DNA from: a virus
Taxonomy: Duplodnaviria > Caudoviricetes
IMG/VR virus record: IMGVR_UViG_3300036987_000045
Location: 1 to 55,710 of that record
Strand: one strand, 5' to 3'
Length of the DNA stretch: 55,710 nucleotides
A model generated the notes under the pieces. That model saw nothing but the letters and a program-made list of their open reading frames with translations, did no database searches and was not told where the DNA came from. Below, in pieces: positions 9,755 to 36,852 of the stretch. A program made the translations under genes and the position numbers. The first letter of the stretch is position 1. Each line of letters opens with the position of its first letter.

Positions 9755-10687
9755 ATGCGCCGCACACTGGTAGAATTTGAAGTCACAATGGAACAACTTG
9801 CCAAGATGTTCAGTGGCTCCAACGAACTAACTGTTCGCAGCTGGGAAAAAAGGTGGCTAGACAACGTGGTCGAAAACCTACGCACTGTAACTACACCTAG
9901 GCCCCTTAAGCAACTACTTACAAACGTCAACACTCATGTGGCGTTGTGTTGCGGCGCAGGTCCTTCCTTACGCAAACTGAAGAAACGGGCACCCCTCATT
10001 CCTCCTGAGTGGGGGGTGATCGCTTGTGATTACAGCCTGTTAGCGGTGCTTGAGGTTGGGATCAAACCCTTATTCGTAGTGACGATGGACGGGCATCAGG
10101 AAACCGAGCCAGCGGTTTTAGAGGGCTTTGCTCGCTTGGCTAAGGAGCATCCCGACGTACCAGTAATCGCTGACATTGTCTCCTGTCCCAGTGTCGTTGA
10201 GCAGCTTACCAACCCCTACTTCTTCCGTTCAATGGGGGAACACAGCAACACCCTTAACCGCTACGTCATGCAGCAGTGCCCTCAGATTGACCAAATAGGA
10301 CATGGGGGCAACGTCGGTTCGGTAGCATGTATCCTGGCCAAGTTTTGGTCCTTTGCCAGACACGTAGTCCTCATAGGCTACGACAGCGCCATGCGTGAGG
10401 GTACTTACAAAGAGAACTATTGGAACGGCAAGAACGGGGATGACGATAAGCAGTACGTCGAAGTGTGCGATGTCTACGGTCGCCCCATCATGACGATGGG
10501 CAACCTGCACAACTACAAGTGGTGGCTGGATCATTTCTGCTATATGAACAACGACGTCGAGTGGATCAACGCTAACGATGGCGGGTTCCTCGGCGTGTGT
10601 GGCCCGGATCGTAATTACAATCATTACACTTATTTACCTCTAGAGAAAGCTGTGGAGCACCTTAAGGACCACAGCATTGATGATTAG
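9755..10687 (+). CDS. Maf-family (motility associated factor, DUF115/MAF_flag10) glycosyltransferase
   Basis: ALCCGAGPSL, VIACD, GIKPLFVVTMD, GGNVGS, VVLIGYD and WINAN match the Maf/MptE-like signature series. Confidence 0.85.
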   Translation: MRRTLVEFEVTMEQLAKMFSGSNELTVRSWEKRWLDNVVENLRTVTTPRPLKQLLTNVNTHVALCCGAGPSLRKLKKRAPLIPPEWGVIACDYSLLAVLEVGIKPLFVVTMDGHQETEPAVLEGFARLAKEHPDVPVIADIVSCPSVVEQLTNPYFFRSMGEHSNTLNRYVMQQCPQIDQIGHGGNVGSVACILAKFWSFARHVVLIGYDSAMREGTYKENYWNGKNGDDDKQYVEVCDVYGRPIMTMGNLHNYKWWLDHFCYMNNDVEWINANDGGFLGVCGPDRNYNHYTYLPLEKAVEHLKDHSIDD

Positions 10688-10760
10688 GTTGTATGTCTGC
10701 TTTTAACTGACAACTGTCTGCATAAGGCAGACATAAACTGAATGATTAAGGAGCACGAAG

Positions 10761-11042
10761 ATGGCAACTACCTATACTGCAAGCGCTGCTAGCGGGTACA
10801 TGACCGATGTGATGGCCGATGTGATGATTGGTCCGTTCCGGTGTTTCACGGCCCACTACAGCTCTCCCAATGCAGCGACCGCATTGTTCACTCCGGGTAT
10901 GGCTAAGGTTGTCTTTGCCCATTGCCAGGACGCAGACCCGACCACATACCAGCAGACCGCCAATTCCATCGGCGGGATAAACTGTGAGTTCAGTGGGCTG
11001 GTAACTGGGTCAACTGGCTACGTATTCATCCTAGGATTCTAA
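10761..11042 (+). CDS. Small probable virion protein
   Basis: AAGGAG RBS; Thr/Ser/Ala-rich; lies in the head operon. Confidence 0.65.
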   Translation: MATTYTASAASGYMTDVMADVMIGPFRCFTAHYSSPNAATALFTPGMAKVVFAHCQDADPTTYQQTANSIGGINCEFSGLVTGSTGYVFILGF

Positions 11043-11043
11043 C

Positions 11044-11970
11044 ATGTCTCACGTATTACTAGGCGGAACTGGTACTCTAGGCAGAGCAATCACTAAGCTT
11101 TTACTAAGTACGACTCGCGATCGCATCAGGATTGTAGCTCGTAATGAGTACCAGATGGGACAGATGAAGCGTGACTTCCCAAACGACCGCCTAAGCTTCA
11201 TCATTGCTGACGTACGTGACGAAGACCGCCTCCGTCGGGTATTGAGGGATGCGGCCTACGTATATCATATGGCAGCACTGAAGCATGTACACACATGTGA
11301 GTACGATGTGCTTGAGGCGACTAAGACCAACGTTGAAGGCACAGCCAATGTCGTGCGGGCCTGTATAGACACAGGGGTCCTCAAGGCTGTCCTGGTCTCG
11401 ACAGACAAAGCAGTGGAGCCGACTACGTCCTACGGTGCGATGAAGATGGTAGCTGAGCGCATGTTTATCTACGGTAACAGTTACCGTGGCAGCAGCGGCA
11501 ACCCAGCCTTCCACTGTGTACGCTATGGCAATGTGCTTGGCTCCCACGGAAGCGTTGTGGAGGTTTGGCGACAGCGTCAAGCAGACGGAAAGCCCATTGG
11601 ACTATCCGATCCAGAGATCACCCGCTTCTGGTGGACACCCGAGGACGCCGCCGCTTTCGTTATACGCTCCATGGACATATGCAACGCAGGCGACGTACTT
11701 GTACCAATTATGCCCAGCTGCTCGCTAGCTCAGCTAGCTACCCTCATAGCGCCTAAAGCTAAACAGGAAAGGATTGCTGGGTATTCAACTGAGAAGACAC
11801 ACGAAGTACTCATTGCTCCATATGAGCTAGCCCAGACTACCGTTGTCGAGGATATGGCAGCTCTCCGTATCGCTTACCTTCATCCCACTGACGAGACGCC
11901 TTGGTCTGGCAGCTGCTTAAGTAGTCAGGCTGCTGTCTGCGTATCTGATGTTGCGAGGTGCTTAGCATGA
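11044..11970 (+). CDS. pseB: UDP-GlcNAc 4,6-dehydratase, PseB/FlaA1-like (Polysacc_synt_2 SDR)
   Basis: GGTGTLG, HMAALKHV, STDKAVEP, YGAMK, VRYGNVLGSHGSV, TRFW and EKTHE motifs. Confidence 0.9.
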   Translation: MSHVLLGGTGTLGRAITKLLLSTTRDRIRIVARNEYQMGQMKRDFPNDRLSFIIADVRDEDRLRRVLRDAAYVYHMAALKHVHTCEYDVLEATKTNVEGTANVVRACIDTGVLKAVLVSTDKAVEPTTSYGAMKMVAERMFIYGNSYRGSSGNPAFHCVRYGNVLGSHGSVVEVWRQRQADGKPIGLSDPEITRFWWTPEDAAAFVIRSMDICNAGDVLVPIMPSCSLAQLATLIAPKAKQERIAGYSTEKTHEVLIAPYELAQTTVVEDMAALRIAYLHPTDETPWSGSCLSSQAAVCVSDVARCLA

Positions 11971-12224
11971 GTTGGGTTAGATGTGGCTTTTGTTTATGGT
12001 TCAAAGAGGATGAAATTCCGATAGAACATTCTCTATCGGGTGATGGTGGCTGTTTGGTATTCTATCCCCACCACAAAGAGCCGCTATCAGTAAACTATAA
12101 TGATAGGTGCTCCCTTTGGACATGTCCTGTTTGTCTTCGCGATTATAAGAGAATACATGAGGATTGTATACCACAGTCTAAAGCGAGTAGACCTAAAGCC
12201 AAAAGGAAGCGTCGGAGAGAGTGA
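11967..12224 (+). CDS. Small Cys-rich hypothetical protein
   Basis: CxxC motifs; overlaps both neighbours. Confidence 0.55.
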   Translation: MSWVRCGFCLWFKEDEIPIEHSLSGDGGCLVFYPHHKEPLSVNYNDRCSLWTCPVCLRDYKRIHEDCIPQSKASRPKAKRKRRRE

Positions 12225-13135
12225 TGAGCTTCCGTTCAATGAAACTTGAGTTAATGAGCTTCATGCCTGAGATCAATGCTGTGCAAGCGGGCCTGCGCCT
12301 CAATCGCAGCTATCAGCATCTCTTGTCCTTGCACCCGTGGAGCTTCATCAAGGGTGAGGGCGTTACTAAGCTTGTTGGGACGGACACAACCGGAACCGTG
12401 TCAGTGACCAGTGGTACTGATACTGTGGCTGGAACGTCGACGACATTCGACTCTACCTACGTAGGACGCTTCATCAAGATTGACTCCAGTACCGTGTCCT
12501 ATGAGATCACCGCCTTCACTGCCCCACAAACGCTGACGCTTGAGGGTAACTTCAATGAGACTAGCGTAACCGATGGCGATTATGTAATCTATCAGCATCG
12601 CTATTCCAAACCCAGCGACTGCGCTGACATTATTGGTATACGCTATGACTGTGACATGCCTCAAATAACCAAGAGCTGGATCGACGCCATGGACCCCAAC
12701 CGCGAGTCTACTGGTCAGCCGCTCTACTGGCTTAACTACACCAACGCGCTTTGGGAAGTGTGGCCGGTTCCGGATGCAACCTACACGGTACGTCTGTGGT
12801 ACAACCGCAGCTTTGCCGACATGTCAGCCGAGACGGATACCTGTACCATACCCGAGAGTGTCGTCATTGCCCACGCTAAGCAAGAAGCGTGTCTGTACCT
12901 GGCTACGACACCCGGCACCGATCCCAAGGTAGCACAACACTACTTGCAGGTCTATACGCTTATGACGCAGGACCCAGGACCCACGAGCTTTCGTTCCCTA
13001 TGGCAAGCCGCGCTTGAGGAAGACACCCGCAAGCTGTCCCTGCCCAGGACCGTAATATCGGTTGGGCCGACCTATCCCGACAACAATGATTACCTAATGC
13101 GCCATGATGTAGGTGATCCCCGAGGTGCAAGATGA
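12221..13135 (+). CDS. Head-tail adaptor/tail tubular-like protein with an inserted Thr-rich beta domain
   Basis: HPWSF, YSKPSDC, GQPLYW and VWPVPD pattern of podovirus adaptor proteins. Confidence 0.65.
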   Translation: MMSFRSMKLELMSFMPEINAVQAGLRLNRSYQHLLSLHPWSFIKGEGVTKLVGTDTTGTVSVTSGTDTVAGTSTTFDSTYVGRFIKIDSSTVSYEITAFTAPQTLTLEGNFNETSVTDGDYVIYQHRYSKPSDCADIIGIRYDCDMPQITKSWIDAMDPNRESTGQPLYWLNYTNALWEVWPVPDATYTVRLWYNRSFADMSAETDTCTIPESVVIAHAKQEACLYLATTPGTDPKVAQHYLQVYTLMTQDPGPTSFRSLWQAALEEDTRKLSLPRTVISVGPTYPDNNDYLMRHDVGDPRGAR

Positions 13136-13488
13136 GTATCGGCAACGCTTGGCTTGGCAGCTTGGTGATGCAGAGTATTGATAATACTCAGGATCTAGCT
13201 ACTGGTAGCTTCACTATGACAACGCCGGTTCTCAGTGTTGCCAGCACAGTCGATTGGGCAACGGTGCGCATTGCCGATACGAGTGAGGTTATCTACATAT
13301 CTCTTACTCCTGCGGCTGGCGCAGCGTATTCCACCATTGTTTGGCAAGCTGAGACAAGCGGGCATAGTGCTTTCTTCTGGCAGCCCGACAGACCGCTGTT
13401 TCTGGCCCCTGGCGATTACCTTACCGTTAGGGTAACCAATGATAATACCAGCGGTACTGTCTACGGCAACATGCTGACGCTTTACTAG
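13132..13488 (+). CDS. Probable virion structural protein
   Basis: Beta-rich protein, translationally coupled within the structural operon. Confidence 0.6.
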   Translation: MSIGNAWLGSLVMQSIDNTQDLATGSFTMTTPVLSVASTVDWATVRIADTSEVIYISLTPAAGAAYSTIVWQAETSGHSAFFWQPDRPLFLAPGDYLTVRVTNDNTSGTVYGNMLTLY

Positions 13489-13497
13489 GAGGCGATT

Positions 13498-14160
13498 ATG
13501 CCAGGTTATATTGATGGAATGTCGCCACTTGTAGTCACAACGCTGGAAGCCACTGTCGTTGTGCAGTCGCCATATATTCAGGCTAGCGATACCGCTGGCG
13601 TCTTAGAGGTCCCTGACCCTGGTGTTGCTGATGAGCTGGCTGTTCTCAGTTCTGTACAGACTATGAGCAGCAAGACATTCCTCAATCCGGTCATCACCAG
13701 CGGTCTTTTGACTCAGCCAGTAGTGACTAGTGGCCTGTTCAGCGCCCCAACAATTGATACTGCCCTCATAAAGACCCCCGACATACGCATGACTGGTGGG
13801 GGCACGATGACAGGCGGCATTACGCACAATGTCATTGGGGGTACGCGTGTTGTAAAGACACAGGCTGCGGGAGCAACCAAGACCCTGGATCTGTCTACTG
13901 CCGACATATTTATCGTCGAGCTGACCCAATCCTGTACGCTGACCATTTCCAATGCTGGGTCAAGCAAGCTCTACCACGTCGTTGTTAAGCAGAACGTCAC
14001 AAACAGCTTTACAGGTATGAGCTGGATGACCGGATTTGTTAATCCCCTTGTTGCCAGCGGCCCCACACAGAGTACAAGTGCTGTGGACTTTTGGGAAGTG
14101 CTTTATGACGCACCAGCGGGTAAGCATTACGCCTTCGGTGCCAAGGATGTGCAGACATGA
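13498..14160 (+). CDS. Probable virion/tail protein (Thr/Ser-rich)
   Basis: GGAGG RBS; short xxPxI repeats and a C-terminal beta domain. Confidence 0.6.
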   Translation: MPGYIDGMSPLVVTTLEATVVVQSPYIQASDTAGVLEVPDPGVADELAVLSSVQTMSSKTFLNPVITSGLLTQPVVTSGLFSAPTIDTALIKTPDIRMTGGGTMTGGITHNVIGGTRVVKTQAAGATKTLDLSTADIFIVELTQSCTLTISNAGSSKLYHVVVKQNVTNSFTGMSWMTGFVNPLVASGPTQSTSAVDFWEVLYDAPAGKHYAFGAKDVQT

Positions 14161-16037
14161 GTTTGACTCTTATTCTTCCACGTAAGCTTGGCGAGGATGA
14201 TCTGGAGTGGGGAGATGGCTCCTTTACTTTCACCGATCCGGTCACTGGACTGCCCAACACAAAAGCCAGGATCAATCAAAGCACTGTTCCATATCCGGTT
14301 GATTCCTTTGATAGCCCTTATTGTTATTTCGTCCGTGGGGGTAGCGGGGACAATATACAGGATGCTATTACCGCGCTCGCTGGCACCAGCGCCTGTTTGG
14401 TCCTGGCGCGGGGAAACTGGGCCATCAACAGCGACCTAACTATTCCAGCCAACATCAGGCTTAGGATCAACAAAGGTACGCTGCTGTACATTGCCACTAC
14501 CAAGACGTTGACCTTTACAGGGACTCTGGATGCGGGGCGCTATCAAATATTCTCTCTAGTAGGAACCGGGGTCGTTGCCTTTGCTTCTAGTGAGACCGTG
14601 TATCCTCAATGGTGGGGAACCAATGTTACTGCTTCACTTAATTATGCTCTGGTCTCCGGAGCTGGGGTGGTTGATATTGGGGGAGACACCTATGTAATTG
14701 CCACTACTGTGCTATGGGACCTCAGCAAGTGTGACATGCGCGGGAATGGCGCGAAGTTTGATGCTACGGGTAACGCCGGGACTGCAATTCAGGTGTCTAA
14801 TGACAGCGCCGTAGCTAACGTCTTTTACCCCTGGAGCAGACGCAGAAGTGGGGGCTTTGAGATTGAGGGTGATAAGACTACCTATGCTGCCTGCGTGGGT
14901 TTAGAAGTTAATGGGTCTTATGAGATTTCCGGGTTAAGGTTGTATAATGTAGTAGCCCACGGATTCAATATTGCTCTTAATTTAGACCTGCCGTCATATA
15001 TCTATGGCTCGTCTTTCCGAGATTGTGCTTTTTATGATTCTGTCTATGCCTTCAAAGCAACACATGGCGGAGAAACGGTAACATTTGATAAGTGCTTATT
15101 CTTTAACTCTACCTATGGCTTTTATGTTGGCGACGAAGGCAAGTGGGTTCTTAATGATTGTCATATTGACTACAACAATCAAGCGGTTTATGCTGCTGGG
15201 TCAGCCAGGGTGACATTAAATGATCCTTTTATAGAGAGCAATGCAGATACGGACTACTGGCTCAAGTGTTCCGGGAGTTCTACTGCAATTACTTTGATAA
15301 ACGGGGTCATTGTCAATACTTGTGCCACCGCCAAGACTTACGAGATTGGCCTGGCCGATCAGTGTGGGGCTGAGGGGATTGTTGTCGATGGCACGTTACT
15401 GTCTGGATTTACGGCTGCAACCTACGGAGTTACCGATCTAATCAAGGTAACAGATTATACGGGGGCGGTGCAAATTCGAGGCTTACGTCCATTTATAACA
15501 AGCCCTGCCGCATATAATACAGCCAGGCTTATGCTGTCCTCTCACCTTAACTACTTGGCAGACGGTGGATTTGAAACTGCTTACACTACCGACTGGACCG
15601 CCTCAAGTGGAGCGGGGTACACTGCCCCAGCCCTGGATATTGTAGAGTTTCATGGCGGGGCTAAATCCCTCAAGTTTGCCCCTACGGTTGGCAATCAGAC
15701 TCAGATCATACGCTCTATTCCCTGCCGGGTCGGAGAATGGGGCCGCATGTCTTTTTGGCTAAAACAGGATTTATCCACTTCCACTGACACCTTCCGCATA
15801 GAGGCTGGTTATCTATCGGCGGACGGATCAGAGATACCCTACCATTCCAATGTCATTGACCTCAGCCAAGCGGGAACGCATTACGATGACTGGACGCACT
15901 TATGGATCACTCCGTATTACGTTGCCCCATCTGGCGCTGTATCAATTTACTTCAAGTTCAAAGTGGGGACTGCGGCCAGCGACGGCAATGGGGAGACCTA
16001 TATCGACGATGTCCAGATTAATATGTGGATTCAGTAG
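14157..16037 (+). CDS. Tailspike: right-handed beta-helix with a C-terminal carbohydrate-binding-like domain
   Basis: VYPQWWG, repeated pectate-lyase-like rungs, and a C-terminal NYLADGGFE...YIDDVQI CBM-like module. Confidence 0.8.
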   Translation: MSLTLILPRKLGEDDLEWGDGSFTFTDPVTGLPNTKARINQSTVPYPVDSFDSPYCYFVRGGSGDNIQDAITALAGTSACLVLARGNWAINSDLTIPANIRLRINKGTLLYIATTKTLTFTGTLDAGRYQIFSLVGTGVVAFASSETVYPQWWGTNVTASLNYALVSGAGVVDIGGDTYVIATTVLWDLSKCDMRGNGAKFDATGNAGTAIQVSNDSAVANVFYPWSRRRSGGFEIEGDKTTYAACVGLEVNGSYEISGLRLYNVVAHGFNIALNLDLPSYIYGSSFRDCAFYDSVYAFKATHGGETVTFDKCLFFNSTYGFYVGDEGKWVLNDCHIDYNNQAVYAAGSARVTLNDPFIESNADTDYWLKCSGSSTAITLINGVIVNTCATAKTYEIGLADQCGAEGIVVDGTLLSGFTAATYGVTDLIKVTDYTGAVQIRGLRPFITSPAAYNTARLMLSSHLNYLADGGFETAYTTDWTASSGAGYTAPALDIVEFHGGAKSLKFAPTVGNQTQIIRSIPCRVGEWGRMSFWLKQDLSTSTDTFRIEAGYLSADGSEIPYHSNVIDLSQAGTHYDDWTHLWITPYYVAPSGAVSIYFKFKVGTAASDGNGETYIDDVQINMWIQ

Positions 16038-16045
16038 GAGCAATA

Positions 16046-18553
16046 ATGAAGACTAGACTTCCAGGCGAAACTGTAATTACAATATCTCCTTCTGGTGGGA
16101 TGTTTGTTACTATACCCGGCGTGGGCGTGTTGGACATGAATATTCCTGGAATCAAATGGCTCCTCCGAGACGATTTCACTACGGCCCTCGGTGCTGGCAG
16201 TGTCAACGGCACCAACGCCGAGCCTGGGCCGGGGGTGAGGACGCTAACTGACACTAATAGCCTTGCGTCTATATCAGGTGGCAATGCTGTTATGACCGGT
16301 GCCAAGGGCGCGTCTACTTGGGGTGATCCGTGGTGGAGATATGCGAGTATTACCAGAAGTGCTGGTCAAATGTTTTTCTGGAAGGTTACATTACCGACCA
16401 CAGATAAGTTTAGGTACGTTGGATTTGGTTCCGGATCGACAACTTATCCCGCTATGTTTTATTTTTTAAATGATGGGACTTTTAAAGCGGCAAACAATAG
16501 CGGCGCTGGATCTGTAATTGGGACGTATGCAGCAAACACTTATTATATAGCCTTAATAGTTAAGGCGACTGGTTTTAAGTGGTATATAAAAGGAGGAATT
16601 TACACAAATTGGAGATATTTATACGACACAGTAATAAACACAGCAGCGCTAATTCCAGGTTGGGAAACTTATCAAACGTTAGACAACCTTCTTGTGGATT
16701 TTATACGCTTTCCAGCCGATAAATATCTATTTCCTCCTCTGATTTCTGATGGTTTTAGTATAGCAGGGATTTCAGATGGGTTGGCCCATGCTGAAGGTAT
16801 AGCAGGCGGCTTAGGTGCTGGTGGTGAAGGAGTAGCATGGCATTATCGTGACCCGTATCAGGATACTAAGACCTTGACACTCAAGGGTCAGTTGCATTGT
16901 CACAGCATACTAAGTGATGGAGATCAAACCCCCGCTGCCATAGTTACAGCTTATAGAGATGCGGGGTATGATTTTGTTGCCCTGACAGATCATTACGACG
17001 GAGCTATTTATCCAGATGTAGCAGATGATCCTGGAATTTCAGGAATAACCTTTTTGAAGGGTACTGAATCCGGCACTACCATTGGGGAAATGCTGTGCTG
17101 GAACATCACTACTGGCCGGACAGGTGCAGACCAGACGATAATAAATGCTTCCCTGGCAGAAGGTGGTTTAGTCGGCTGGCCTCATCCTGATCGGGGTGTG
17201 CCGATTACCCCAACAGTTACAAAGAACATTAGTCAGGGGATGCATTTACTTGAAGTCTACAATTACAAAGTTGTCATTGGTTTTAGTGAGGCCGAGGGCG
17301 ACGCTAGGGACCAGTGGGATAATCATCTAAGTGTAGGCAGGATTTGTTATGGCTTTTTTGCCGATGATTGTCACGATACTCCGAGCTTTGATCATGCTTG
17401 GGTAGTAGTCCATGCAGACAGCAATACTCCGGCAGCCATTATTGACGCCTTGAAAAACGGCAATTTTTATGGAACCCAGGGGCCGACCCTCACTCAGACA
17501 TTCGACAAGGCCACCGGAGTGATTACCGTAACCACCTCCGCTGCTTCTACCATTAGGTTTATTGGAGAGGGCGGAGCGGTGTTGCAGACCACTCCGAGTG
17601 TTACATCTGAGACTTATACTTTAGTCGGAACGGAACTTTATGTACGGGCAGAGGTCATCCGGGATAGTGATAGCAAATTAGCTTGTGGTCAACCCATCAT
17701 GCGAGACACTTGGAGTATTGCAGGAGGCAAGGCGTTAAACACTCCGCCCTTGAATGATGACGTTATTGTCAATGGTACTTTCGGCGCTGATACAGATTGG
17801 TCAAAAGATGCCTCATGGAGCATTGCTGCTGGTGTAGGCACTAAGGTAGCATCTGCCGACATTGAACGGATTTACCAAACAAACAAATTAACTCTTTATC
17901 AGGTTTATAAAGTAACCTGGGATATGTTAAACCGTACTGCTGGGGGTGCTTATCCAGCTCTATGCGCAAGTGGTGGACCTACACGGCAATTGGATGGGTC
18001 GTATGTTGATTATCAGATTACTGTGAACACAACGTTTAGCATTTATGGCAATGCAGCAGGAGCATTATCAATAGATAATGTAACTTGTCAAGAGGTTCCT
18101 TTGTCAAGTTGTATAAGAGGGGTAATTCAGAGCACCTCTGATACAATGGTCGAAGTTGATTTAACTGTTCCCGATGGGAGCTTTGGAGGACTTGCTTTAA
18201 ATTTAGACCATCCTGATTATCCGAGCAATTTTGTATTAATAACGGTAAGCAGGGAAAATGTTGCAAGAATAGTGGCCGCAAAGTATGTGAATGGCACACG
18301 GACACAACTATTCATCGCTACAATAACTTATGGTGCTGGTTATAAGTTAAGAGTAAGAAACATAGGGGGGACATATTATGTTTATTATAATAATCTATAT
18401 GTTAATAACGCTACTGTTGCCGATACAACCGTGATTGATAATTTATATATTGCTAAATTCAGTCCAGATAGCAATGTTCTTTTTGATAATTTTTTAAGTA
18501 ATCCTACTGGAGAGGGTGATGAGTTTGGGTTGTTTGATAAATTTATTCGCTAG
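16046..18553 (+). CDS. Multidomain virion protein with an internal PHP (CehA/McbA-like) metallohydrolase
   Basis: KGQLHCHSILSDG, YDFVALTDH, WPHP, LEVYN and DDCH motifs flanked by lectin/CBM-like beta domains. AGGAG supports ATG 16046. Confidence 0.8.
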   Translation: MKTRLPGETVITISPSGGMFVTIPGVGVLDMNIPGIKWLLRDDFTTALGAGSVNGTNAEPGPGVRTLTDTNSLASISGGNAVMTGAKGASTWGDPWWRYASITRSAGQMFFWKVTLPTTDKFRYVGFGSGSTTYPAMFYFLNDGTFKAANNSGAGSVIGTYAANTYYIALIVKATGFKWYIKGGIYTNWRYLYDTVINTAALIPGWETYQTLDNLLVDFIRFPADKYLFPPLISDGFSIAGISDGLAHAEGIAGGLGAGGEGVAWHYRDPYQDTKTLTLKGQLHCHSILSDGDQTPAAIVTAYRDAGYDFVALTDHYDGAIYPDVADDPGISGITFLKGTESGTTIGEMLCWNITTGRTGADQTIINASLAEGGLVGWPHPDRGVPITPTVTKNISQGMHLLEVYNYKVVIGFSEAEGDARDQWDNHLSVGRICYGFFADDCHDTPSFDHAWVVVHADSNTPAAIIDALKNGNFYGTQGPTLTQTFDKATGVITVTTSAASTIRFIGEGGAVLQTTPSVTSETYTLVGTELYVRAEVIRDSDSKLACGQPIMRDTWSIAGGKALNTPPLNDDVIVNGTFGADTDWSKDASWSIAAGVGTKVASADIERIYQTNKLTLYQVYKVTWDMLNRTAGGAYPALCASGGPTRQLDGSYVDYQITVNTTFSIYGNAAGALSIDNVTCQEVPLSSCIRGVIQSTSDTMVEVDLTVPDGSFGGLALNLDHPDYPSNFVLITVSRENVARIVAAKYVNGTRTQLFIATITYGAGYKLRVRNIGGTYYVYYNNLYVNNATVADTTVIDNLYIAKFSPDSNVLFDNFLSNPTGEGDEFGLFDKFIR

Positions 18554-18721
18554 GGGTAAAACAAGAGGAAGAAATGGCAGTCATCCGGGCCAAGCCGCTC
18601 TGGGATCAGTTTGACGGTTAAATGAGGGCGGCGCTCTGGTACAAGGCTAAGGAACGCGCCCAACGCCGGGCGATAAAAGAATTGGGCAGAAGCCATATTG
18701 CAAAGTAAGGGGAGAGGCAAA

Positions 18722-19105: not shown

Positions 19106-19116
19106 GAGGTGCTACC

Positions 19117-20245: not shown

Positions 20246-20253
20246 GATCATAC

Positions 20254-25056: not shown

Positions 25057-25071
25057 GAAATAGGAAGCCCT

Positions 25072-25704
25072 ATGAGTCACTTTATTGTTGCTACACCCGA
25101 TACCTTGCGAGAGTTCTGGCGGACACCCCCAGAGGGTAACCGTACCGAGGACTACGCTGGCGTGGGGCCAGAGAGAAGCAGCTTTCTGGTTAACTTGGTG
25201 AATCGCTTGCCGCGTCCTAGTAATATACTAGAGATAGGATGCAATTGCGGACGCAACCTTGAGGCGCTGCGGAAGGCCGGGTACACGGGATTGATGGGCA
25301 TAGACATACAGAACTGCACCAACGCGGTGAAGGAACACTTTCCAGGGCTGGCGTCAGAAGGGAGTTTTTGCTGGGAGCCTGCTGAGGATGTGCTGCCCGA
25401 TATGCCTAGTGACTCGGTAGACTTAATCTACAGCATGGTCGCGTTGACTCACATTCCGCCAACGCAGGCGGAGATAGTAACTAGGGCTATGGCGCGTATC
25501 GCTAGACAGAGCATTATTACGATTGAGGATGAGTACCGTGGATGGCCTTATCACACTGGTGATTGGGCGTTGCGGTTCTTCCCACGTAAGTACAAGGACA
25601 TATTTGAGTCTTTGGGATTTCAGCAAATGATCTATTATGAGGGCTACGAGATTGATCGGGATATTGATCGGTGGTTTACTACTAGAGTATTTACTAGGAG
25701 ATAA
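25072..25704 (+). CDS. Class I SAM-dependent methyltransferase
   Basis: ILEIGCNCGRNL (motif I), GIDI, DLIYSMVALTHI. Confidence 0.88.
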   Translation: MSHFIVATPDTLREFWRTPPEGNRTEDYAGVGPERSSFLVNLVNRLPRPSNILEIGCNCGRNLEALRKAGYTGLMGIDIQNCTNAVKEHFPGLASEGSFCWEPAEDVLPDMPSDSVDLIYSMVALTHIPPTQAEIVTRAMARIARQSIITIEDEYRGWPYHTGDWALRFFPRKYKDIFESLGFQQMIYYEGYEIDRDIDRWFTTRVFTRR

Positions 25705-25706
25705 CT

Positions 25707-26162
25707 ATGGCATACACTATCCGTAAGGCTACTCCTAAGGACGCGGGGATCATTGCCCACATGATGTTGGTGTGGGATGCCGAGTTGCCTAAGCATCTCC
25801 AGATGCTGAACGGAGACGCCCCTCATGCCGAGACCACGGCTAAGGCTATGACGACAAACCCAGAGTTCATCACTGAGGTAGTCGAGGAAGATGGCAAGAT
25901 TGTGGGTATGTATGTGGTGTCTAAGATTGAGGGATTGTTTTGTTCCAAGCCATATGGGATACTTAATGTAATGGTCTATCCCAAGTACCGTGGTGGTAAG
26001 ATGTACGGATTGCGTTTACTGGAGAGAAGTATTAAGGCGGCTAAGGAAGCTGGATTGGCTTGGCTGGAATCGTGTCCATGGGCAGATGCCCACGGGATGC
26101 ACTTTGTGCTTGAGCGACTCGGGTTTAATTTTATGTCCCGAGGCTATGCTCTGAGGTTCTAA
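25707..26162 (+). CDS. GNAT acetyltransferase-like protein
   Basis: IRKATPKD, VYPKYRGG and LERLGF; position before the ejection genes is common in podoviruses. Confidence 0.8.
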   Translation: MAYTIRKATPKDAGIIAHMMLVWDAELPKHLQMLNGDAPHAETTAKAMTTNPEFITEVVEEDGKIVGMYVVSKIEGLFCSKPYGILNVMVYPKYRGGKMYGLRLLERSIKAAKEAGLAWLESCPWADAHGMHFVLERLGFNFMSRGYALRF

Positions 26163-26164
26163 TT

Positions 26165-26947: not shown

Positions 26948-26957
26948 GAGATAGATT

Positions 26958-27947: not shown

Positions 27948-27956
27948 GAGTATGCT

Positions 27957-31672: not shown

Positions 31673-31687
31673 TTTAAGGAGAGCACC

Positions 31688-32017
31688 ATGAGCATCATCC
31701 GTTTCTACAACGTACCGGCCACGTCAGAATATTTTGCTATTGGAACAGCGTGTTCCGAAGCGTTGACTACAGCCAACTACTACATGTCTACAGGTTATGT
31801 GCGTGGGCAAGGCGCACAATCTGTATTTGGAACGCTGGAGGGCGCTGACCTGCGTTTTAAAATTAACGGTAGCGCCCCCGCAACGAGTTGTGGTCATATC
31901 TGGTACAAGGGAGATTCTATCTTCTTTGACGACCTGGGTATACTGCAAAATCTCCAACTGCTTAACGAAGCAGCGTTGGCTACAGCATACGTACACTTTA
32001 CATACTTCTACGGCTAG
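31688..32017 (+). CDS. Small probable virion protein
   Basis: AAGGAG RBS; LRFKING.AP...GH motif; its stop overlaps the convergent gene's stop in CTAG. Confidence 0.6.
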   Translation: MSIIRFYNVPATSEYFAIGTACSEALTTANYYMSTGYVRGQGAQSVFGTLEGADLRFKINGSAPATSCGHIWYKGDSIFFDDLGILQNLQLLNEAALATAYVHFTYFYG

Positions 32018-32205
32018 TCCTGAGGAGGGGTCGCTGCACTCTCTGGTAGTGGTCCCTCTGGGTAGCCCTCCCAGGGACAGGGTTTGTTATGGTGGCTAGT
32101 GTCGACGGGGCAGTCGCACTTGCCATTTACGTACCAGTAGCATTCATTGATACGCAGGTCCTTAGCAACAGTGAACCAGGGCTTGTAGTTATGACATTTG
32201 TTCAT
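32014..32205 (-). CDS. Small Cys-rich hypothetical protein
   Basis: Coupled to the neuB-like gene; last gene of the minus-strand operon. Confidence 0.5.
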   Translation of the reverse strand: MNKCHNYKPWFTVAKDLRINECYWYVNGKCDCPVDTSHHNKPCPWEGYPEGPLPESAATPPQD

Positions 32206-32996
32206 ACGTATTTACTCCAGCGTTTGCGCCACTCGAGGACATCCGGTCTATCAGGTGGCACATAGTCATCCTCGTAGGAATCCCCGAATACAGGCTGCAA
32301 TTCCAGCGTTCGTACAGTGATCTCACGTAGGTTCTCAACGTCTACGGCACATTGCTGATCCGGGGTCTTGTTGTCCAGTATGTCCTCCTTGAGATGGAAC
32401 TCCAGTTGTTTGGCATCGTAGGCCAGAGCGATGGGCAGGAGATTTTCCCATTCCGGTGTGTGACATGACCAACCAACATAGGGCTGGATCATCATGTCTT
32501 CCATAATGTCGGCCAACAGTGATATGCGACTCATGCAGGCCAGGTCCAGCGGGGTTGGGTACATGGATACGCAATGCATTAGGCATACGCTACCGCTGTA
32601 AGGATCAATCGTCTCGCAGAGCTTAAGCAGCTCGTCCTCATTCATACCACCAGTCGAGATCATTACCGGCAGGCCGGTAGAGCAGCACTCCCGAACCAGC
32701 TCGTAATAGGTGGACTCGACGCTAGCAATCTTCAGTGCTAGGGGCTTACGCGGCAGGGCATAGTCTAGGTCCGCTGGGCAGAAGACGCTAGGTACCCAGA
32801 ACTCTGGTAGGGGCCAGTTGCGGTTAAAGGTCTTCTCACTGAAGAGCTGAATCTTTACTATGGCATTGGCAGAGATAGCGTAGTTGACCAGGCGATCATA
32901 TAGCTTGCGATTGCCTTTGTGGTTCGTGCCCAAGTCAGCGTAGACGTTGATCTGGTCTAGGAGGGGGAGGCCGATGTCTTTGTTGGTGTCGTTCAT
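32202..32996 (-). CDS. Nonulosonic acid synthase, NeuB/PseI family
   Basis: ADLGTNHKG, KIQLF, KIASVE, PVMISTG, LMHCVSMYPTP, VGWSCHT and LEFH; no C-terminal SAF/antifreeze-like domain. Confidence 0.9.
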   Translation of the reverse strand: MNDTNKDIGLPLLDQINVYADLGTNHKGNRKLYDRLVNYAISANAIVKIQLFSEKTFNRNWPLPEFWVPSVFCPADLDYALPRKPLALKIASVESTYYELVRECCSTGLPVMISTGGMNEDELLKLCETIDPYSGSVCLMHCVSMYPTPLDLACMSRISLLADIMEDMMIQPYVGWSCHTPEWENLLPIALAYDAKQLEFHLKEDILDNKTPDQQCAVDVENLREITVRTLELQPVFGDSYEDDYVPPDRPDVLEWRKRWSKYV

Positions 32997-33181
32997 AGCT
33001 CTACTTCCTCCATATTGGCGGTTTTGCTCACGCAGAAGGGACAGACGTAAAAATCATGTTTACTCATTATGTTTTCTACGGTGTAATTACCGAGTGTGTC
33101 TCGCTCCCACTTAGCGATCATATACTTTGCTCCACACTCACACTCGAATGCCATTGGTCTTCCTAGTGTCTGTACGCTCAT
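32993..33181 (-). CDS. Small zinc-ribbon protein
   Basis: CECG...CPFC; ATGA coupling with both neighbours. Confidence 0.55.
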   Translation of the reverse strand: MSVQTLGRPMAFECECGAKYMIAKWERDTLGNYTVENIMSKHDFYVCPFCVSKTANMEEVEL

Positions 33182-33978
33182 ATCGCTACTCCATTGATAG
33201 CGTTCCATGCACGCCATCCGTCAAATAGGCTGGGGGTTACGGTCAGGTCCCAATCCTCGATTGCCTGAAGCCATACCTCAACTACGGTTTGGTAGGACTC
33301 GTTGATTTGGGTGTCGTGGGCCGGGGACTGCCAACTCAATTCCTCACTGCTGCCGTCGGCCATCTGTACCACGATGCCCCGGCGGTACGTCGCGCTGTGC
33401 CAGCCGGATTGGATTGTGGTCAGTACGCCGCTGTGGTGCTTTATCAACATGCTGTATGCGTCCATACTAAGGGACTTGAGTGTAGAACGGGACTCGACGT
33501 GGACACGCTCGGCGGCACCGAAGAGCCATAGGGCCATGTCAACCTCATGGAGATTGATACGCGTTATGCCTTCCTGATAGTAACATGTCTTGCGATAGTC
33601 TGTGTCTCGCCAGCTAGCTAGATCATAGTCAAAGTACAGATGGGCACTGACAATGTGTTTACCAACCAGACGCGTTTCCAGCTCTCGCATAGAGTGTACG
33701 AAGCGCCAGTTGGAGGCGGTCATGTTGGGCACTTCAGCTAAATACAATGTGGGGCTACGATGATATGTTATTGGACCCTCACATAAGATAGGGATGCCTA
33801 AATTGTAGGCATAGTCCAGATGTGCTTCGTGAGCGACAGGCGGACTAGCAATTATCACAGCATCCCTTCGCACAAACGAGTCCCTTGGCCCCGCTATTGT
33901 AGGCTCATGCCCAAGCGTACGCAGTATGCGTTCGTAGCGTTTACCGGCGCTACCGTCCCCTATTACTAAGATTTTCAT
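33178..33978 (-). CDS. Gfo/Idh/MocA-family NAD(P)-dependent oxidoreductase
   Basis: MKILVIGDGSAG, VIIASPPVAH, ILCEGP (EKP variant), NWRF and HEVD..LWLFG. Confidence 0.85.
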   Translation of the reverse strand: MKILVIGDGSAGKRYERILRTLGHEPTIAGPRDSFVRRDAVIIASPPVAHEAHLDYAYNLGIPILCEGPITYHRSPTLYLAEVPNMTASNWRFVHSMRELETRLVGKHIVSAHLYFDYDLASWRDTDYRKTCYYQEGITRINLHEVDMALWLFGAAERVHVESRSTLKSLSMDAYSMLIKHHSGVLTTIQSGWHSATYRRGIVVQMADGSSEELSWQSPAHDTQINESYQTVVEVWLQAIEDWDLTVTPSLFDGWRAWNAINGVAI

Positions 33979-34031
33979 GCTACCCTTCCTTTCCTCTAAG
34001 CATAGATAGAGATCGTTCAAATTTAGTGCAA

Positions 34032-34604
34032 TTAAGACGATTGTAGCCCCGGTGGAGCAGATTTGAAGCGGGAGCCTCTGCCTTGTTCGACTAGCTTCCT
34101 TTTTGCCTCCGCTGAAAGGATTGCGCCCTTTCTGGTTCGACGCGCTCCTACCAATTCACATACCTCTTGTAAAACGGATAGAGGAAATCTTATATCCATT
34201 GTAAAGCGTCCGTCAAACGTAAGGGCTATGGACGCTTCTTTAACTGCGCGGAGAACCTTATTCCCCAATTGCTTGGTTGTATACAGAGTGAATAGCTTGG
34301 CTTTATCATCGAATAGGTAGATGATGCTACCATTCGAGCATAGTATCCACTCGTACCAGTGCAGAGCTTCTTTTTTGAACTCAGGGCGCTCTACGACAAA
34401 GGATGGATCTATCCCCATTCTGTACCTGTACTTGGTCAGCTTTGCCAATGTACCCCACTTACTAGACCAAACCTTCTCTAGTTTCTTCTTCCATAGATAA
34501 TGCTCCGGGGTTTTTCCATCCACAACCTTTGTTAGGATTACACCACCCACATTCGCCTTAATTAGTAGTTCTGGCGTGGCTTCCATACTTCTTCCTCCCC
34601 TCAA
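34032..34604 (-). CDS. Hypothetical basic protein inserted in the sugar cluster
   Basis: 190-aa ORF with a C-terminal LSAEAKRKL; no recognised enzyme motif. Confidence 0.6.
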   Translation of the reverse strand: MRGGRSMEATPELLIKANVGGVILTKVVDGKTPEHYLWKKKLEKVWSSKWGTLAKLTKYRYRMGIDPSFVVERPEFKKEALHWYEWILCSNGSIIYLFDDKAKLFTLYTTKQLGNKVLRAVKEASIALTFDGRFTMDIRFPLSVLQEVCELVGARRTRKGAILSAEAKRKLVEQGRGSRFKSAPPGLQSS

Positions 34605-35199
34605 TCATACGTTTAACTAGTAAGTACTCCTCACTTGTATCCACGCTTATCTTGGCTCGTGGGTCCAATATGCTTACCCGGACACGCTCGACAGGGAGCA
34701 TGGAGTACAGCATCGGCGTAACATGTTCCCTTCCATAAGGACTAGTATCTAGCTCGCTTACCTTCCTGAGAGCGTGTGCCGGGAACAGCTCCATGTCCAA
34801 GCCATCTGGATCAAGTGGGCGGTTGGTGTACAGCGTATCGCTGTCCATGTCACAACGCATAAGGAAGCGCTCGATTAGTTCCTGGGTGAGCATAGGGCAA
34901 TCGGCTGTTAGACGCAGGACCCACTGGAACTCCATATCATAGTACCCCTGCGCCTTGTCCAGAGCAACTATGAATCTGGTCAACACGTCGTCTGGCGTAT
35001 GGTGTGCGGCAAAGGGCACCTTCATGTCCCGGCATATGTCCATGATGATTGTATCTGTAGCCGGACACGCTACGATCTTAGGAAAGGGCGCTGCCTCGAC
35101 TACGTAGCTAAACATAGGCAAGCCGTGTATCGGCAGCAATGCTTTGCCGGGGAGACGAGTGGAGCCTACGCGTACTTGTATAATGCTTAGGACGATCAC
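34558..35199 (-). CDS. Acylneuraminate cytidylyltransferase-like, SpsF/PseF family
   Basis: IIQVRVGSTRLPGKAL, DDVLTRF, RLTADCP, PDGLDMELF, REHVTP and SVDT.EY. Confidence 0.9.
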   Translation of the reverse strand: MIVLSIIQVRVGSTRLPGKALLPIHGLPMFSYVVEAAPFPKIVACPATDTIIMDICRDMKVPFAAHHTPDDVLTRFIVALDKAQGYYDMEFQWVLRLTADCPMLTQELIERFLMRCDMDSDTLYTNRPLDPDGLDMELFPAHALRKVSELDTSPYGREHVTPMLYSMLPVERVRVSILDPRAKISVDTSEEYLLVKRMIEGRKKYGSHARTTN

Positions 35200-35354
35200 T
35201 CTAGTTTACCCCCGTGCCTTATTGCCCACTCCTCAAGCAGCGTTACGCGGGCCTCAAGATCAGCTACGCGTGTCTCCAAAGAGACCTGCTTAGATGGAAG
35301 CGACGCCGCAACGCAGACCAGTACCATGATTATCAAGAACACGATCTTCTTCAT
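35196..35354 (-). CDS. 52-aa membrane-anchored coiled-coil peptide
   Basis: MKKIVFLIIMVLVCVAAS...LETRVADLEARVTLLE; coupled at both ends; not in the ORF track. Confidence 0.6.
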   Translation of the reverse strand: MKKIVFLIIMVLVCVAASLPSKQVSLETRVADLEARVTLLEEWAIRHGGKLE

Positions 35355-35794
35355 GCCTTTCTCCATTCCAATATGACACAGGGTCGGTGTTTAACGATCT
35401 GTGCATCTGCTATCGTGAATCCGCATGTGGTAAACAGGCGTAGGCTATGGGTGTTGCCTACAATTACCGTAGCTTGCAAACGGTCATACTGTCGCTTTAA
35501 GAACTCTATACACTGCTTGCCGTAGCCCTTGCTACGGGCCAAAGGATTTACGGTTATGCCCACGTCGTCACCTATCACCTGCATGATCGCTACTGGCCCA
35601 CTGTCGTTTTCAGCAATACAGATGTCCTCGTTTACAATCGCCCGATGCATCCATTCCCAATGCTTCTCAATTGTTGGGGTTCGGTTCAGGCTCCAGAAGG
35701 CTGTCTGTTGCTCCATGCGCCAGGCATAAAGCATCCACAGATCACTCATACGTACGCGTCTAAACGTTAGGGCTGGGTCTCTCTCCATCGACAT
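35351..35794 (-). CDS. PseH-like GNAT N-acetyltransferase
   Basis: DL..LYAWR, EKHWEW, ARSKGYG and N..SLRLF..CGF. Confidence 0.82.
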   Translation of the reverse strand: MSMERDPALTFRRVRMSDLWMLYAWRMEQQTAFWSLNRTPTIEKHWEWMHRAIVNEDICIAENDSGPVAIMQVIGDDVGITVNPLARSKGYGKQCIEFLKRQYDRLQATVIVGNTHSLRLFTTCGFTIADAQIVKHRPCVILEWRKA

Positions 35795-36852
35795 AATACC
35801 TCCACTAGTCTATGTATTTGATTCCGCGTCTGCGACAACGCCACACTTATCCACCCCGGAAACAAGATCCCCCGATCGAAACAGTATCCAGTCGCGTCAC
35901 GGGTCTGCGACGAGGGAAGCATGACCTCGAAACGCTCGTTTAACCCGTTGGTAGCGAATCCAACATCATGAAGCACATCCCGAAAGAATTGCCCCAGTTC
36001 GCTTAGCTGAGACGGAATAGCAAGCGCACGATACGCTGCCAGCGTACGCATAGCAATGTCCAAGGACGTATTTTCACCATTGTTTGTGCCCGAGAAGTGA
36101 ACCTCGCTGATAAGTTTATCCATGAGAGCCTTCCGTCCAGTACATGCTGATAGAGCCGCTCCCTGGGCCATCGCCTTACCATAGCAATAGAGATCGGCTT
36201 TAATACCAATCGAGTGCATATACCCCCCGAGCGTGTGCCGGTAGCCGAGGATAACTTCGTCGCTAATGAGTACGATCCCGTGCTCATCGCATACCTCCCC
36301 TAAATGCTCCAACCACCCGACAGGCGGTACCTCTATGGATTTGGGCACTGGCTCAACAACGATAGCCGCAACCGACAACGGGGCCATTAGGTCAAGCGGC
36401 TGGCCGAACGGCAACACGATAGCCGGGGTCGGTGGGTACCCGGCTTGATGCCAGCCTATTGGTCCGAACTCTGACGCAGTACCATGGTAGGACTTATCAA
36501 ATATAACTATGTTCTGGCGGCCTGTGGCGGCCCTGGCAAGACGCACGGCACAACTGAGGGCGTCACTACCAGATTTGAAGAAACGCACCGCCTCCGTGCC
36601 CATAGCGTCACAGAATTGGTTAGCAAAGTCGCGTTCGTTCATCCAGGGAAGAGATGCAGCTGGTCGAAACACCGAGCTGAAATAATCATAGCCCAACGTA
36701 TTCGCCCCCAACGCAGAGGCCCAGTCGTCATACTCCTTACCATTGCTGAGCTTAATGACCGAGTCTCGAGCATCCGTAACCCATAGATTCTTAGTCTTGT
36801 CTGGCCAAATAGATCGCTTGCTCGTAGTACTGGTGTTATTGACTAGATGCAT
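35767..36852 (-). CDS. Class III PLP aminotransferase (glutamate-semialdehyde aminomutase-like)
   Basis: YDDW..LG, VRFFKSGSDA..AVRLARA.TGR, SYHG, EPV, LISDEVILGYR and YGKAMAQG. Confidence 0.9.
   Translation of the reverse strand: MHLVNNTSTTSKRSIWPDKTKNLWVTDARDSVIKLSNGKEYDDWASALGANTLGYDYFSSVFRPAASLPWMNERDFANQFCDAMGTEAVRFFKSGSDALSCAVRLARAATGRQNIVIFDKSYHGTASEFGPIGWHQAGYPPTPAIVLPFGQPLDLMAPLSVAAIVVEPVPKSIEVPPVGWLEHLGEVCDEHGIVLISDEVILGYRHTLGGYMHSIGIKADLYCYGKAMAQGAALSACTGRKALMDKLISEVHFSGTNNGENTSLDIAMRTLAAYRALAIPSQLSELGQFFRDVLHDVGFATNGLNERFEVMLPSSQTRDATGYCFDRGILFPGWISVALSQTRNQIHRLVEVLCRWRETQP

Follow-up and report, generated by a model that had tools for sequence, protein, structure and literature searches.

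Why would a tailed phage carry, among its head genes, a gene resembling those of the Maf enzymes that glycosylate bacterial flagellin? The question is raised by IMG/VR virus record IMGVR_UViG_3300036987_000045 (Duplodnaviria; Caudoviricetes), analysed here over its entire length of 55,710 bp (hereafter the window), in which a Maf-like gene lies between the genes for the major capsid protein (MCP) and the head-tail adaptor and is accompanied by a PseB-like gene and, on the opposite strand, by a cluster of further sugar genes. Bacterial Maf flagellin glycosylation, as known from Campylobacter, Helicobacter, Aeromonas and Magnetospirillum, uses pseudaminic or legionaminic acid activated with cytidine monophosphate (CMP). 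With a probability of about 0.55, we propose that the phage encodes a non-canonical pathway resembling that for pseudaminic acid (Pse), and that a Maf-type transferase of minimal size puts the sugar on virion proteins, the likeliest being a 189-aa protein encoded directly after the MCP. The proposal is built on the observed families, folds and conserved residues of the proteins, and on the order and the joint conservation and loss of their genes.

The first-pass annotation of the window had assigned seven open reading frames (ORFs) to such a system, and all seven are present with the positions and strands that it gave. The frame of the oxidoreductase gene stays open to a TTG at 34020, its likely start being the internal ATG at 33978, ahead of the Rossmann motif. 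When matches were judged against the Pfam curated cut-offs, each ORF reached or exceeded the cut-off of the family claimed for it. The Maf-like ORF (9755-10687, plus strand) matches PF01973, MptE-like (formerly the DUF115/Maf family), at 70.1 bits against a cut-off of 34.6 (E 2.5e-19), over profile positions 2-170 of 171 and with 71.5 bits in a six-frame search, and the PseB-like ORF (11044-11970, plus strand) matches Polysacc_synt_2 at 231.4 bits against 20.2 (E 1.7e-68). The other five lie on the minus strand: a NeuB-like ORF (32202-32996; NeuB, PF03102, 78.4 bits against 22.1, E 7.5e-22), a Gfo/Idh/MocA-type oxidoreductase (33178-34020; GFO_IDH_MocA_C3, a marginal 30.7 bits against 27, E 3.5e-07, with the N-terminal Rossmann model at 20.3 bits, under its cut-off of 24), an SpsF-like cytidylyltransferase (34558-35199; CTP_transf_3, 63.5 bits against 22.6, E 3.3e-17), a GNAT N-acetyltransferase (35351-35794; Acetyltransf_3, 28.4 bits against 25.4, E 3.1e-06, and Acetyltransf_1, 27 bits) and a class III aminotransferase (35767-36852; Aminotran_3, 103 bits against 30.5, E 2e-29). 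The E-values of these seven family matches are far beyond chance.

The Maf-like gene encodes a putative nonulosonic acid transferase of minimal size, 310 aa. Its 42 homologues (45-79% identity) are nearly all equally short, 39 of them having 294-318 aa and three 195-211 aa. An AlphaFold2 model computed from an alignment of 19 homologues, in which 60 positions are invariant, has a predicted local distance difference test score (pLDDT) of 91.3 and a predicted template modelling (TM) score of 0.90. Compared with the PDB by Foldseek, this model finds Magnetospirillum magneticum Maf first (5mu5; E 9.9e-9, 285 columns, TM by query 0.57), followed by chains of the archaeal pterin pyrophosphokinase MptE (8sd5; E 1.2e-5 to 1.7e-4, about 210 columns, TM 0.39-0.43), with eukaryotic sialyltransferases among the weak matches. 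The phage protein and MptE belong to the same Pfam family and have in common a nucleotide-binding N-terminal half with aligned GxGPS and DGD motifs. Unlike MptE, which has about 240 aa, the phage protein continues into a C-terminal beta-rich region with a counterpart in Maf, and its gene lies among sugar and capsid genes, not folate genes. A sequence bridge leads in the same direction: a viral Maf-like protein of 563 aa (locus L101) matches the family profile at 79.8 bits over positions 9-283, and among PDB entries this viral protein resembles 5mu5 most (E 1.2e-7), with MptE behind it.

Bacterial Mafs are multi-domain proteins of about 600 aa with N- and C-terminal domains around the core; the 5mu5 chain has 666 aa. 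As in bacterial Maf, the window protein has PF01973 and the fold of the 5mu5 central domain, and its gene is genetically associated with PseB-like, NeuB-family and cytidylyltransferase genes. Unlike bacterial Maf, it is a core of about 300 aa, is encoded between capsid and adaptor genes and has a presumed virion acceptor. On the predicted structure, it would be the catalytic core of a Maf-type enzyme minus the flanking domains, with a predicted Maf-like action, rather than a typical family member. The neighbours of the gene encode the MCP, a decoration-like protein, the PseB-like protein and the adaptor; no flagellar gene was found among the ORFs covered by the family scans, and the gene has no linkage to flagellin. 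No close Maf relative was found in IMG/VR, either by a scan with the single protein or by a profile scan in which none of 34 pattern matches was confirmed.

The surrounding cassette runs, all on the plus strand, from the MCP (8182-9141; phrog_9953 major head protein, E 3.1e-37) through the 189-aa protein (9154-9723), the Maf-like gene, a 93-aa ORF (10761-11042), the PseB-like gene and an 88-aa Cys-rich ORF (11958-12224) to the adaptor (12221-13135; PF24175 SU10_adaptor, 41.1 bits), with intergenic gaps of at most 73 nt or overlaps. The evidence for an operon is this tight spacing; a scan of 6000-14500 adds none, as both promoter-like sites (9, against 7.0 expected) and terminator-like sites (5, against 6.4 expected) occur at chance level. 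The PseB-like gene belongs to the late structural operon. Its product, a putative UDP-GlcNAc (uridine diphosphate N-acetylglucosamine) 4,6-dehydratase of the inverting type, is closest among PDB entries to H. pylori FlaA1/PseB (2gn4, E 2.9e-56), and the GGTGxxG, STDKA and YGAxK motifs of the two line up. The 93-aa protein has no family match, is 49-59% identical in two related loci (L003 and L004), and is probably structural. The 88-aa ORF likewise has no family match, and no tblastn match in two further relatives (L005 and L006).

The 189-aa gene begins 12 nt past the MCP stop and would encode the decoration- or cement-like protein that is our candidate glycan acceptor. It has no PHROG match, no Pfam match even at E<=10 (Phage_cement_2, PF09956, included), and just 18 relatives among 1.84 billion representatives. 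Its AlphaFold2 model (pLDDT 74.1) has its best Foldseek matches in T1 capsid chain H, the phi29 gp8.5 head-fibre base, FCWL1, Borrelia BB1 and HFTV1, and the top ten rows are all capsid, prohead, portal-vertex or phi29 head-fibre base entries. The Atlas gives a lead in the same direction, to clusters containing Phage_cement_2; one cluster that it matches with a structural TM score of 0.53 has PF09956 in 63% of its members. Serine and threonine make up 21.7% of the protein, against a genome mean of 12.5% (standard deviation 4.1, 67 ORFs). A complex prediction for the Maf-like and 189-aa families, which scored 0.00 against a mark of 0.32 with no controls, is uninformative either way.

The relatives of the window connect these genes to one another. 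Searches with the Maf-like protein yielded three loci (L002, L003 and L004; Maf identity 45-57%), one among genome contigs and two short ones among metagenome contigs, and searches with the MCP yielded two more (L005 and L006). The order of the cassette genes is conserved in all three of the former: the PseB-like gene follows Maf in each, the 93-aa gene is present in two (L003, L004), the adaptor is reached in two, and the 189-aa gene lies upstream of Maf in two (L002, L004), L003 ending 393 nt upstream of Maf. The L005 and L006 loci are close relatives by their large terminase (TerL, 63% identical to that of the window), portal (60%), MCP (75%, the same value as for L002) and adaptor (47-48%). 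Their gap between MCP and adaptor is only about 330 bp, and neither has the 189-aa gene, Maf, the PseB-like gene or the 88-aa ORF. What they retain is the adaptor, a 118-aa protein and a small ORF; the gap of L005 is filled by an 85-aa ORF that resembles the 93-aa protein weakly and collinearly (E 0.014 in a single comparison).

The longer record of L005 (G001, 44,971 bp) shows what became of the distant sugar genes. At an estimated completeness of 79%, it has no PF01973 match, no CTP_transf_3 match, and no homologue of the aminotransferase or of its GNAT. An adjacent pair of Gfo-like and NeuB-like genes is kept at the syntenic place, with 32% and 34% identity, and this NeuB-like copy departs from its family at 10 otherwise nearly invariant positions, among them the Lys of ALKIAS, the Ser of STGG, the Glu-x-His of EFH and the Asp of PD; the second His is one of the residues changed. 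Since the cassette-bearing L002 shares more identity with L005 and L006 (MCP 83.6%, adaptor 64%) than with the window (75.5% and 46%), the cassette is ancestral and disappeared a single time, in the L005/L006 lineage. The distant sugar genes were lost or decayed along with it, and this joint loss links two gene sets lying 22 kb apart and ties the 189-aa protein to Maf. Matched on size and source, five contigs are apparently common to the NeuB-like and aminotransferase families, and one, of 51,361 bp, to the Maf-like and NeuB-like families.

Two side observations belong to these relatives. L002 is a 10,817-bp contig binned into a bacterial metagenome-assembled genome, but it is made up of phage head and tail genes syntenic with the window; that a phage contig ended up in the bin is more likely than that the bin reveals the host. 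Near its decayed NeuB-like gene, record G001 carries a caspase-like Peptidase_C14 gene (L008:13421-14185, plus strand, 48.9 bits) and a TSCPD-domain gene (L008:16096-16425, plus strand, 73.2 bits).

Which sugar would these genes make? The phage would rely mostly on enzymes of its own, and the product would be a pseudaminic-acid-like nonulosonic acid, or a related 3-deoxy-ulosonic acid, in CMP-activated form. The PseB-like dehydratase would take the first step, from UDP-GlcNAc to a 4-keto-6-deoxy sugar, which the class III aminotransferase and the adjacent GNAT would aminate and then N-acetylate. Either the host or a phage enzyme that went unrecognised would release UDP, after which the NeuB-like synthase would condense the sugar with phosphoenolpyruvate. 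The Gfo/Idh/MocA oxidoreductase may tailor the product, a putative step, and the SpsF-like cytidylyltransferase is predicted to convert the ulosonic acid into its CMP form, from which the 310-aa Maf-like enzyme would transfer it onto Ser/Thr of a surface virion protein, the decoration-like 189-aa protein being the likeliest.

The individual enzymes look intact at residue level, as far as alignment of the PseB-like, NeuB-like and cytidylyltransferase proteins to solved relatives can tell. The NeuB-like protein is a compact synthase of 264 aa, a TIM barrel with no SAF domain, whose PDB matches are N. meningitidis NeuB (1xuu/2wqp, E 2.4e-11) and PseI (8h2c). Across 19 family sequences there is little or no variation at the positions that correspond to the NeuB Lys, Glu and two His; we take their catalytic roles to be those known from NeuB structure work. 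The 18 closest homologues (40-71% identity), the shortest a fragment of 187 aa and the longest of 279 aa, have no room for SAF, in place of which the family has a conserved Arg-rich C-terminal tail. Among PDB entries the cytidylyltransferase is closest to the SpsF-like 6oew, an unnamed cytidylyltransferase (E 1.4e-12), to which its GSTRLPGK motif aligns.

In the place of the DegT-type PseC stands the aminotransferase, a class III enzyme related to GSA aminomutase but shortened. About 39 phage-clade homologues share 40-67% identity with it, while cellular enzymes are sharply lower, at 36% or less. Its gene overlaps that of the GNAT by 28 nt, and a metagenomic protein of 539 aa (P0123) is a natural fusion of a phage-clade class III aminotransferase with GNAT domains; from overlap and fusion together we argue that amination and N-acylation are consecutive steps. 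The GNAT has a putative PseH-like role. Between oxidoreductase and cytidylyltransferase lies the gene of a 190-aa protein (34032-34604, minus strand) with no Pfam, NCBIfam or PHROG match and with only unnamed, mostly viral clusters as its Atlas neighbours; it is the sole unassigned candidate for the missing UDP-releasing step.

Set beside the canonical route PseB-PseC-PseH-PseG-PseI-PseF, the window has a PseB-like dehydratase, a GNAT, a synthase of the NeuB/PseI family and a CTP_transf_3 protein. Unlike that route, it is without a DegT-type PseC and without PseG, and has a class III aminotransferase and a Gfo/Idh/MocA oxidoreductase instead. The set is thus best described, on its predicted members, as a non-canonical Pse-like route that is incomplete by canonical standards, and its product may be a different ulosonic acid than Pse. 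With no PseG, NeuC or LegG, no DegT enzyme, no SAF domain and a Maf reduced to its core, the sugar cannot be named from sequence, and the missing canonical enzymes imply that at least one step is supplied by the host or by an unrecognised enzyme. For the same reasons, the description of the set in the first-pass annotation as an almost complete flagellin-glycosylation machine was overstated.

As an observation apart, each of the two sugar-gene sets holds a small Cys-rich, zinc-ribbon-like ORF with CxxC pairs: the 88-aa ORF of the cassette (11958-12224) and, within the minus-strand cluster, a 74-aa ORF (32993-33217, minus strand) with a weak A2L_zn_ribbon match of 15 bits, below cut-off.

Do other phages combine such genes? 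A NeuB-family profile scan of IMG/VR yielded 68 loci, and among their records PF01973 occurs in 15 of the 68 at E<=0.001 (6 of 50 and 9 of 18 in two batches) and above the Pfam cut-off in 10. One of these records (G003, 63.7 kb, 99% complete) has a phrog_9953 MCP (E 4.4e-104) followed by a 153-aa ORF, three PF01973 paralogues, a 147-aa ORF and an SU10-type adaptor, a layout as in the window. Its sugar cluster is more canonical, with a PseB-like protein (36% identity), a DegT fragment, a NeuB with SAF, a HisF-like protein, CTP_transf_3, a methyltransferase and a GNAT. There is no support for homology between the 153-aa ORF and the 189-aa protein (BLASTP E 55, no Pfam match). A second lineage is represented by G051, a siphophage fragment with a tape-measure gene, in which NeuB is present and two PF01973 genes flank the MCP; a third (L097:7460-8719, minus strand, 419 aa) adjoins a major tail protein with an Ig-like domain (phrog_807), which suggests, from gene position, that tail-tube glycosylation may occur in this lineage. 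G055 has scores identical to those of G051, and the two may be one virus. In a further genome (G068) the Maf-like gene lies about 4 kb from the MCP, and in four others (G069, G070, G058 and G030) no MCP was located with the two models tried.

Two other phage lineages have Maf-like genes beside major virion genes, plus NeuB. A broader claim is that a group of uncultivated podophages with phrog_9953 capsids and at least one unrelated siphophage lineage coat their own virions with a sialic-acid-like nonulosonic acid by means of stripped-down Mafs whose target has shifted from flagellin to decoration, capsid or tail proteins. In the window lineage this would proceed by an undescribed sugar route, with a class III aminotransferase in place of PseC, a SAF-less NeuB-type synthase in place of PseI, and a non-PseG enzyme or the host freeing UDP. 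We advance this joint claim tentatively and would give it slightly less than an even chance.

Several findings weigh against glycosylation of the virion by such a system, and we gather them here. At the level of names, no ORF reaches an NCBIfam equivalog cut-off. The PseB equivalog TIGR03589 is the best NCBIfam match of the PseB-like protein, with 255.5 bits against a cut-off of 407.75; the NeuB-like protein scores 68.5 against 399.65 for NeuB and 62.6 against 340.25 for PseI; the cytidylyltransferase scores 22.1 against 205.7 for PseF, with KdsB-type models scoring higher; the best matches of the aminotransferase are HemL-like, all under cut-off; and NCBIfam gives no PseH match for the GNAT and no match at all for the Maf-like protein. 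The families claimed for the seven genes stand, and finer names such as PseB, PseH and PseF are weaker than the family assignments. At the level of the pathway, whole-genome six-frame searches gave no match to PseG (TIGR03590, at E<=1) and none to NeuC/LegG-type Epimerase_2, and over the whole genome the DegT/PseC model PF01041 gave 8.9 bits (E 0.025), inside the class III gene only. We know of no class III aminotransferase that acts at C4 of a UDP-sugar.

The transferase and its proposed acceptor raise further points of this kind. A search of the PDB with the single Maf-like sequence gave no match, and the family profile matched MptE 8sd5 only (E 2.1e-6, N-terminal half) and no Maf; the protein has a single Pfam domain and neither of the N- and C-terminal flanking domains of bacterial Mafs. 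The Foldseek matches of the 189-aa protein are marginal (E at best 4.8e-3, none at 1e-3 or below, TM 0.41-0.52), and its decoration-like assignment leans on them and on the Atlas lead. In the genome, the PseB-like gene stands apart from the remaining sugar genes; the joint loss is one event in one lineage, seen in a record of limited completeness; and the 51,361-bp contig is not among the aminotransferase homologues. That Maf always lies beside the MCP is ruled out by two complete genomes with direct terminal repeats and phrog_9953 MCPs (G054 and G065), whose Maf-like genes are longer (646 aa and 602 aa) and lie about 10 kb and about 25 kb from the MCP. Finally, it is from the genes that we infer what each enzyme does, which sugar is made, which protein accepts it and how the phage profits. 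The earlier idea of virion coating draws comparative support from the conserved cassette with its decoration-like protein, the joint loss or decay, and the Maf genes beside major virion protein genes in two other lineages.

Could the host be modified instead of the virion? Nonulosonic acid might be placed on host flagellin, pili, capsule or lipopolysaccharide during infection, and this could block superinfection, block adsorption of progeny to debris, or alter motility. Bacterial Mafs do act on flagellin, a Pse-making host would naturally supply the missing PseG and PseC steps, and the Maf-like genes of G054 and G065 lie far from the MCP. The nearest published case found also favours conversion of the host surface: prophage genes epaA (CTP_transf_3 and aldo-keto reductase) and epaB (short-chain dehydrogenase/reductase) convert Pse to 8-epiPse on the A. 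baumannii capsule (PMC12053666), and these are the sole published phage nonulosonic acid enzymes found. The parallel is real in that both phages carry nonulosonic acid genes and that EpaA couples a cytidylyltransferase to an oxidoreductase, just as in the window the cytidylyltransferase and the Gfo/Idh/MocA gene are near each other, with the 190-aa ORF between them. However, EpaA and EpaB are two tailoring enzymes of temperate prophages that need the host Pse pathway and alter the host capsule, whereas the window has most of a pathway plus a transferase, the latter in the head module of an apparently virulent phage.

Virulence itself argues against the host as target. The window encodes PolA and has terminal repeats, the family scans recognised neither an integrase nor any other gene for lysogeny in the ORFs that they covered, and the genome therefore looks virulent, which makes lysogenic conversion unlikely. 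Maf and PseB moreover sit inside a head-to-adaptor operon and travel with the decoration-like gene, the Maf-like protein is without the flanking domains of flagellin-modifying Mafs, and the Maf-like genes of G051 flank the MCP and adjoin the major tail protein. We consider modification of the host, the main alternative, unlikely.

Virion glycosylation may also be real with another structural protein as acceptor, such as the MCP, the adaptor, the 93-aa protein, a tailspike or tail fibres; the sugar would then serve to bind receptors or help the tail to function, and not to shield the capsid. The 189-aa protein is matched in Ser/Thr content by several structural neighbours (118-aa protein 23.7%, 220-aa protein 22.7%, 93-aa protein 20.4%, adaptor 20.1%), and the ORF at the equivalent position in G003 has no sequence similarity to it. 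The Maf-like gene beside the major tail protein of G051 and the three paralogues of G003 suggest several acceptors. What favours the 189-aa protein is that its gene is the only structural gene gained or lost together with Maf and PseB, and another main acceptor in the window appears improbable, a shade more so than a host target.

That the 310-aa protein is an MptE-like (pyro)phosphokinase or another nucleotide-dependent enzyme, or that the sugar goes onto DNA or into some other process with capsid proximity incidental, is highly improbable: PF01973 is named after the archaeal MptE kinase, MptE 8sd5 is the only PDB match of the family profile, phages do hypermodify their DNA with sugars (10.1101/2023.12.21.572611) and the PolA of the window has a UDG-superfamily domain, but the model matches Maf more strongly and over more columns than MptE, the sequence bridge leads to 5mu5, the Maf-like gene is linked to PseB and co-lost with the CMP-sugar genes, no folate or pterin genes were found among the ORFs covered by the family scans, and in that source the words nonulosonic, sialic, pseudaminic and NeuB occur 0 times. 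DNA glycosylation, weighed as an explanation, was ranked low.

How new would virion glycosylation of this kind be? The first-pass annotation knew of no characterised tailed phage with this set, and our searches agree. Three different viral Maf-like proteins found no tblastn match in 50,697 GenBank phage records, where the NeuB-like protein of the window has one match, a Moritella contig, a canonical viral NeuB has three, two of them in uncultured viruses, and the PseB-like protein has five, mostly unannotated. No report of a Maf/DUF115 gene in a phage genome, nor of nonulosonic acid on a phage virion, was found in the literature searched, most subscription journals and supplements lying outside its coverage. 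Other combinations of NeuB with Maf-like genes do exist in uncultivated IMG/VR genomes, as seen above, which qualifies the uniqueness of the set.

Little work has been done on glycosylated virions in tailed phages, and ordinary glycosyltransferases account for the cases on record. Virion glycosylation in mycobacteriophages and giant viruses is known to use conventional glycosyltransferase folds and hexose or amino sugars. In the genome note of Maravista, capsid glycosylation was inferred from two glycosyltransferase genes (PMC11256854), and Megavirinae make rare bacterial-like sugars for their fibrils (PMC10117803); the concept common to them and the window is that of virus-encoded enzymes acting on capsid or fibre proteins. 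The system described here would be a variant both of Maf/nonulosonate protein glycosylation and of phage virion glycosylation, unreported in the sources searched. If the broader claim above is correct, this would be the first nonulosonic acid glycosylation of a bacteriophage particle and would add a new class of Maf substrate. Such a sugar, made by a phage and attached by a Maf-type enzyme, would bring a new chemistry to the phage surface, with plausible effects on charge, on access of proteases and antibodies, on adsorption to mucus or debris, and on capsid-sensing defences. A minimal Maf core of 310 aa with a small candidate substrate would further offer a tractable model for the choice of acceptor, unresolved for flagellins, and the non-canonical enzymes (class III aminotransferase, SAF-less synthase) would be of interest to glyco-engineering. 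The sister lineage that lost the system would serve as a natural experiment.

The wider genome is that of a complete phage. The window is the entire record, classed as having direct terminal repeats, and an exact 127-bp repeat at both ends marks it as complete. By family scans, the plus strand from 1.5 to 32 kb encodes the large terminase, portal, a probable scaffold, the MCP, the SU10-type head-tail adaptor, a beta-helix protein, a lysozyme and internal-virion-like proteins, and the minus strand from 32 to 55 kb a family A DNA polymerase, a PD-(D/E)XK nuclease and ATPases; a tRNA scan found no tRNA genes in the genome. Its MCP is just 23-27% identical to those of cultured podophages (Mx8/Mx9, Brucella Tb-like phages, BUCT555), and blastn with both gene regions found no nucleotide match in the same GenBank phage records. 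From this distance and the lack of nucleotide matches, we take the window to be the genome of an uncultivated, podophage-like and apparently virulent virus.

Two further genes may bear on the sugar. Amid the internal-virion-like genes on the plus strand lie a methyltransferase (25072-25704; Pfam Methyltransf_23/25/11) and a second GNAT (25707-26162; Pfam Acetyltransf_1), possible accessory genes that would tailor the sugar or a virion protein. The second GNAT is kept at 43% identity in G001, a record without the Maf cassette, and the methyltransferase and GNAT pair beside the cytidylyltransferase of G003 has no detectable sequence similarity to the pair in the window.

Some features elsewhere in the genome are worth recording. 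The family A DNA polymerase (40222-42480, minus strand) has its UDG-superfamily domain (PF03167, 84.4 bits) at the N-terminus, preceding the 3'-5' exonuclease and polymerase domains, and its homologue in G001 is 52% identical. In the replication module, a 733-aa protein (49456-51657, minus strand) has a C-terminal AAA/STAND-like NTPase region (PF00004 53.8 bits, nSTAND3 29 bits) and may be primase-helicase-like, or something else. Between portal and scaffold, a 137-aa ORF (6847-7260, plus strand) with no family match consists mostly of Gly/Pro/Ala low-complexity runs, its central 49 aa alone being conserved (61%) in L005 and L006. In the tail region, finally, an 842-aa protein (16025-18553, plus strand) with a weak PHP-domain match of 19.1 bits, below cut-off, adjoins the 626-aa beta-helix protein (14157-16037).

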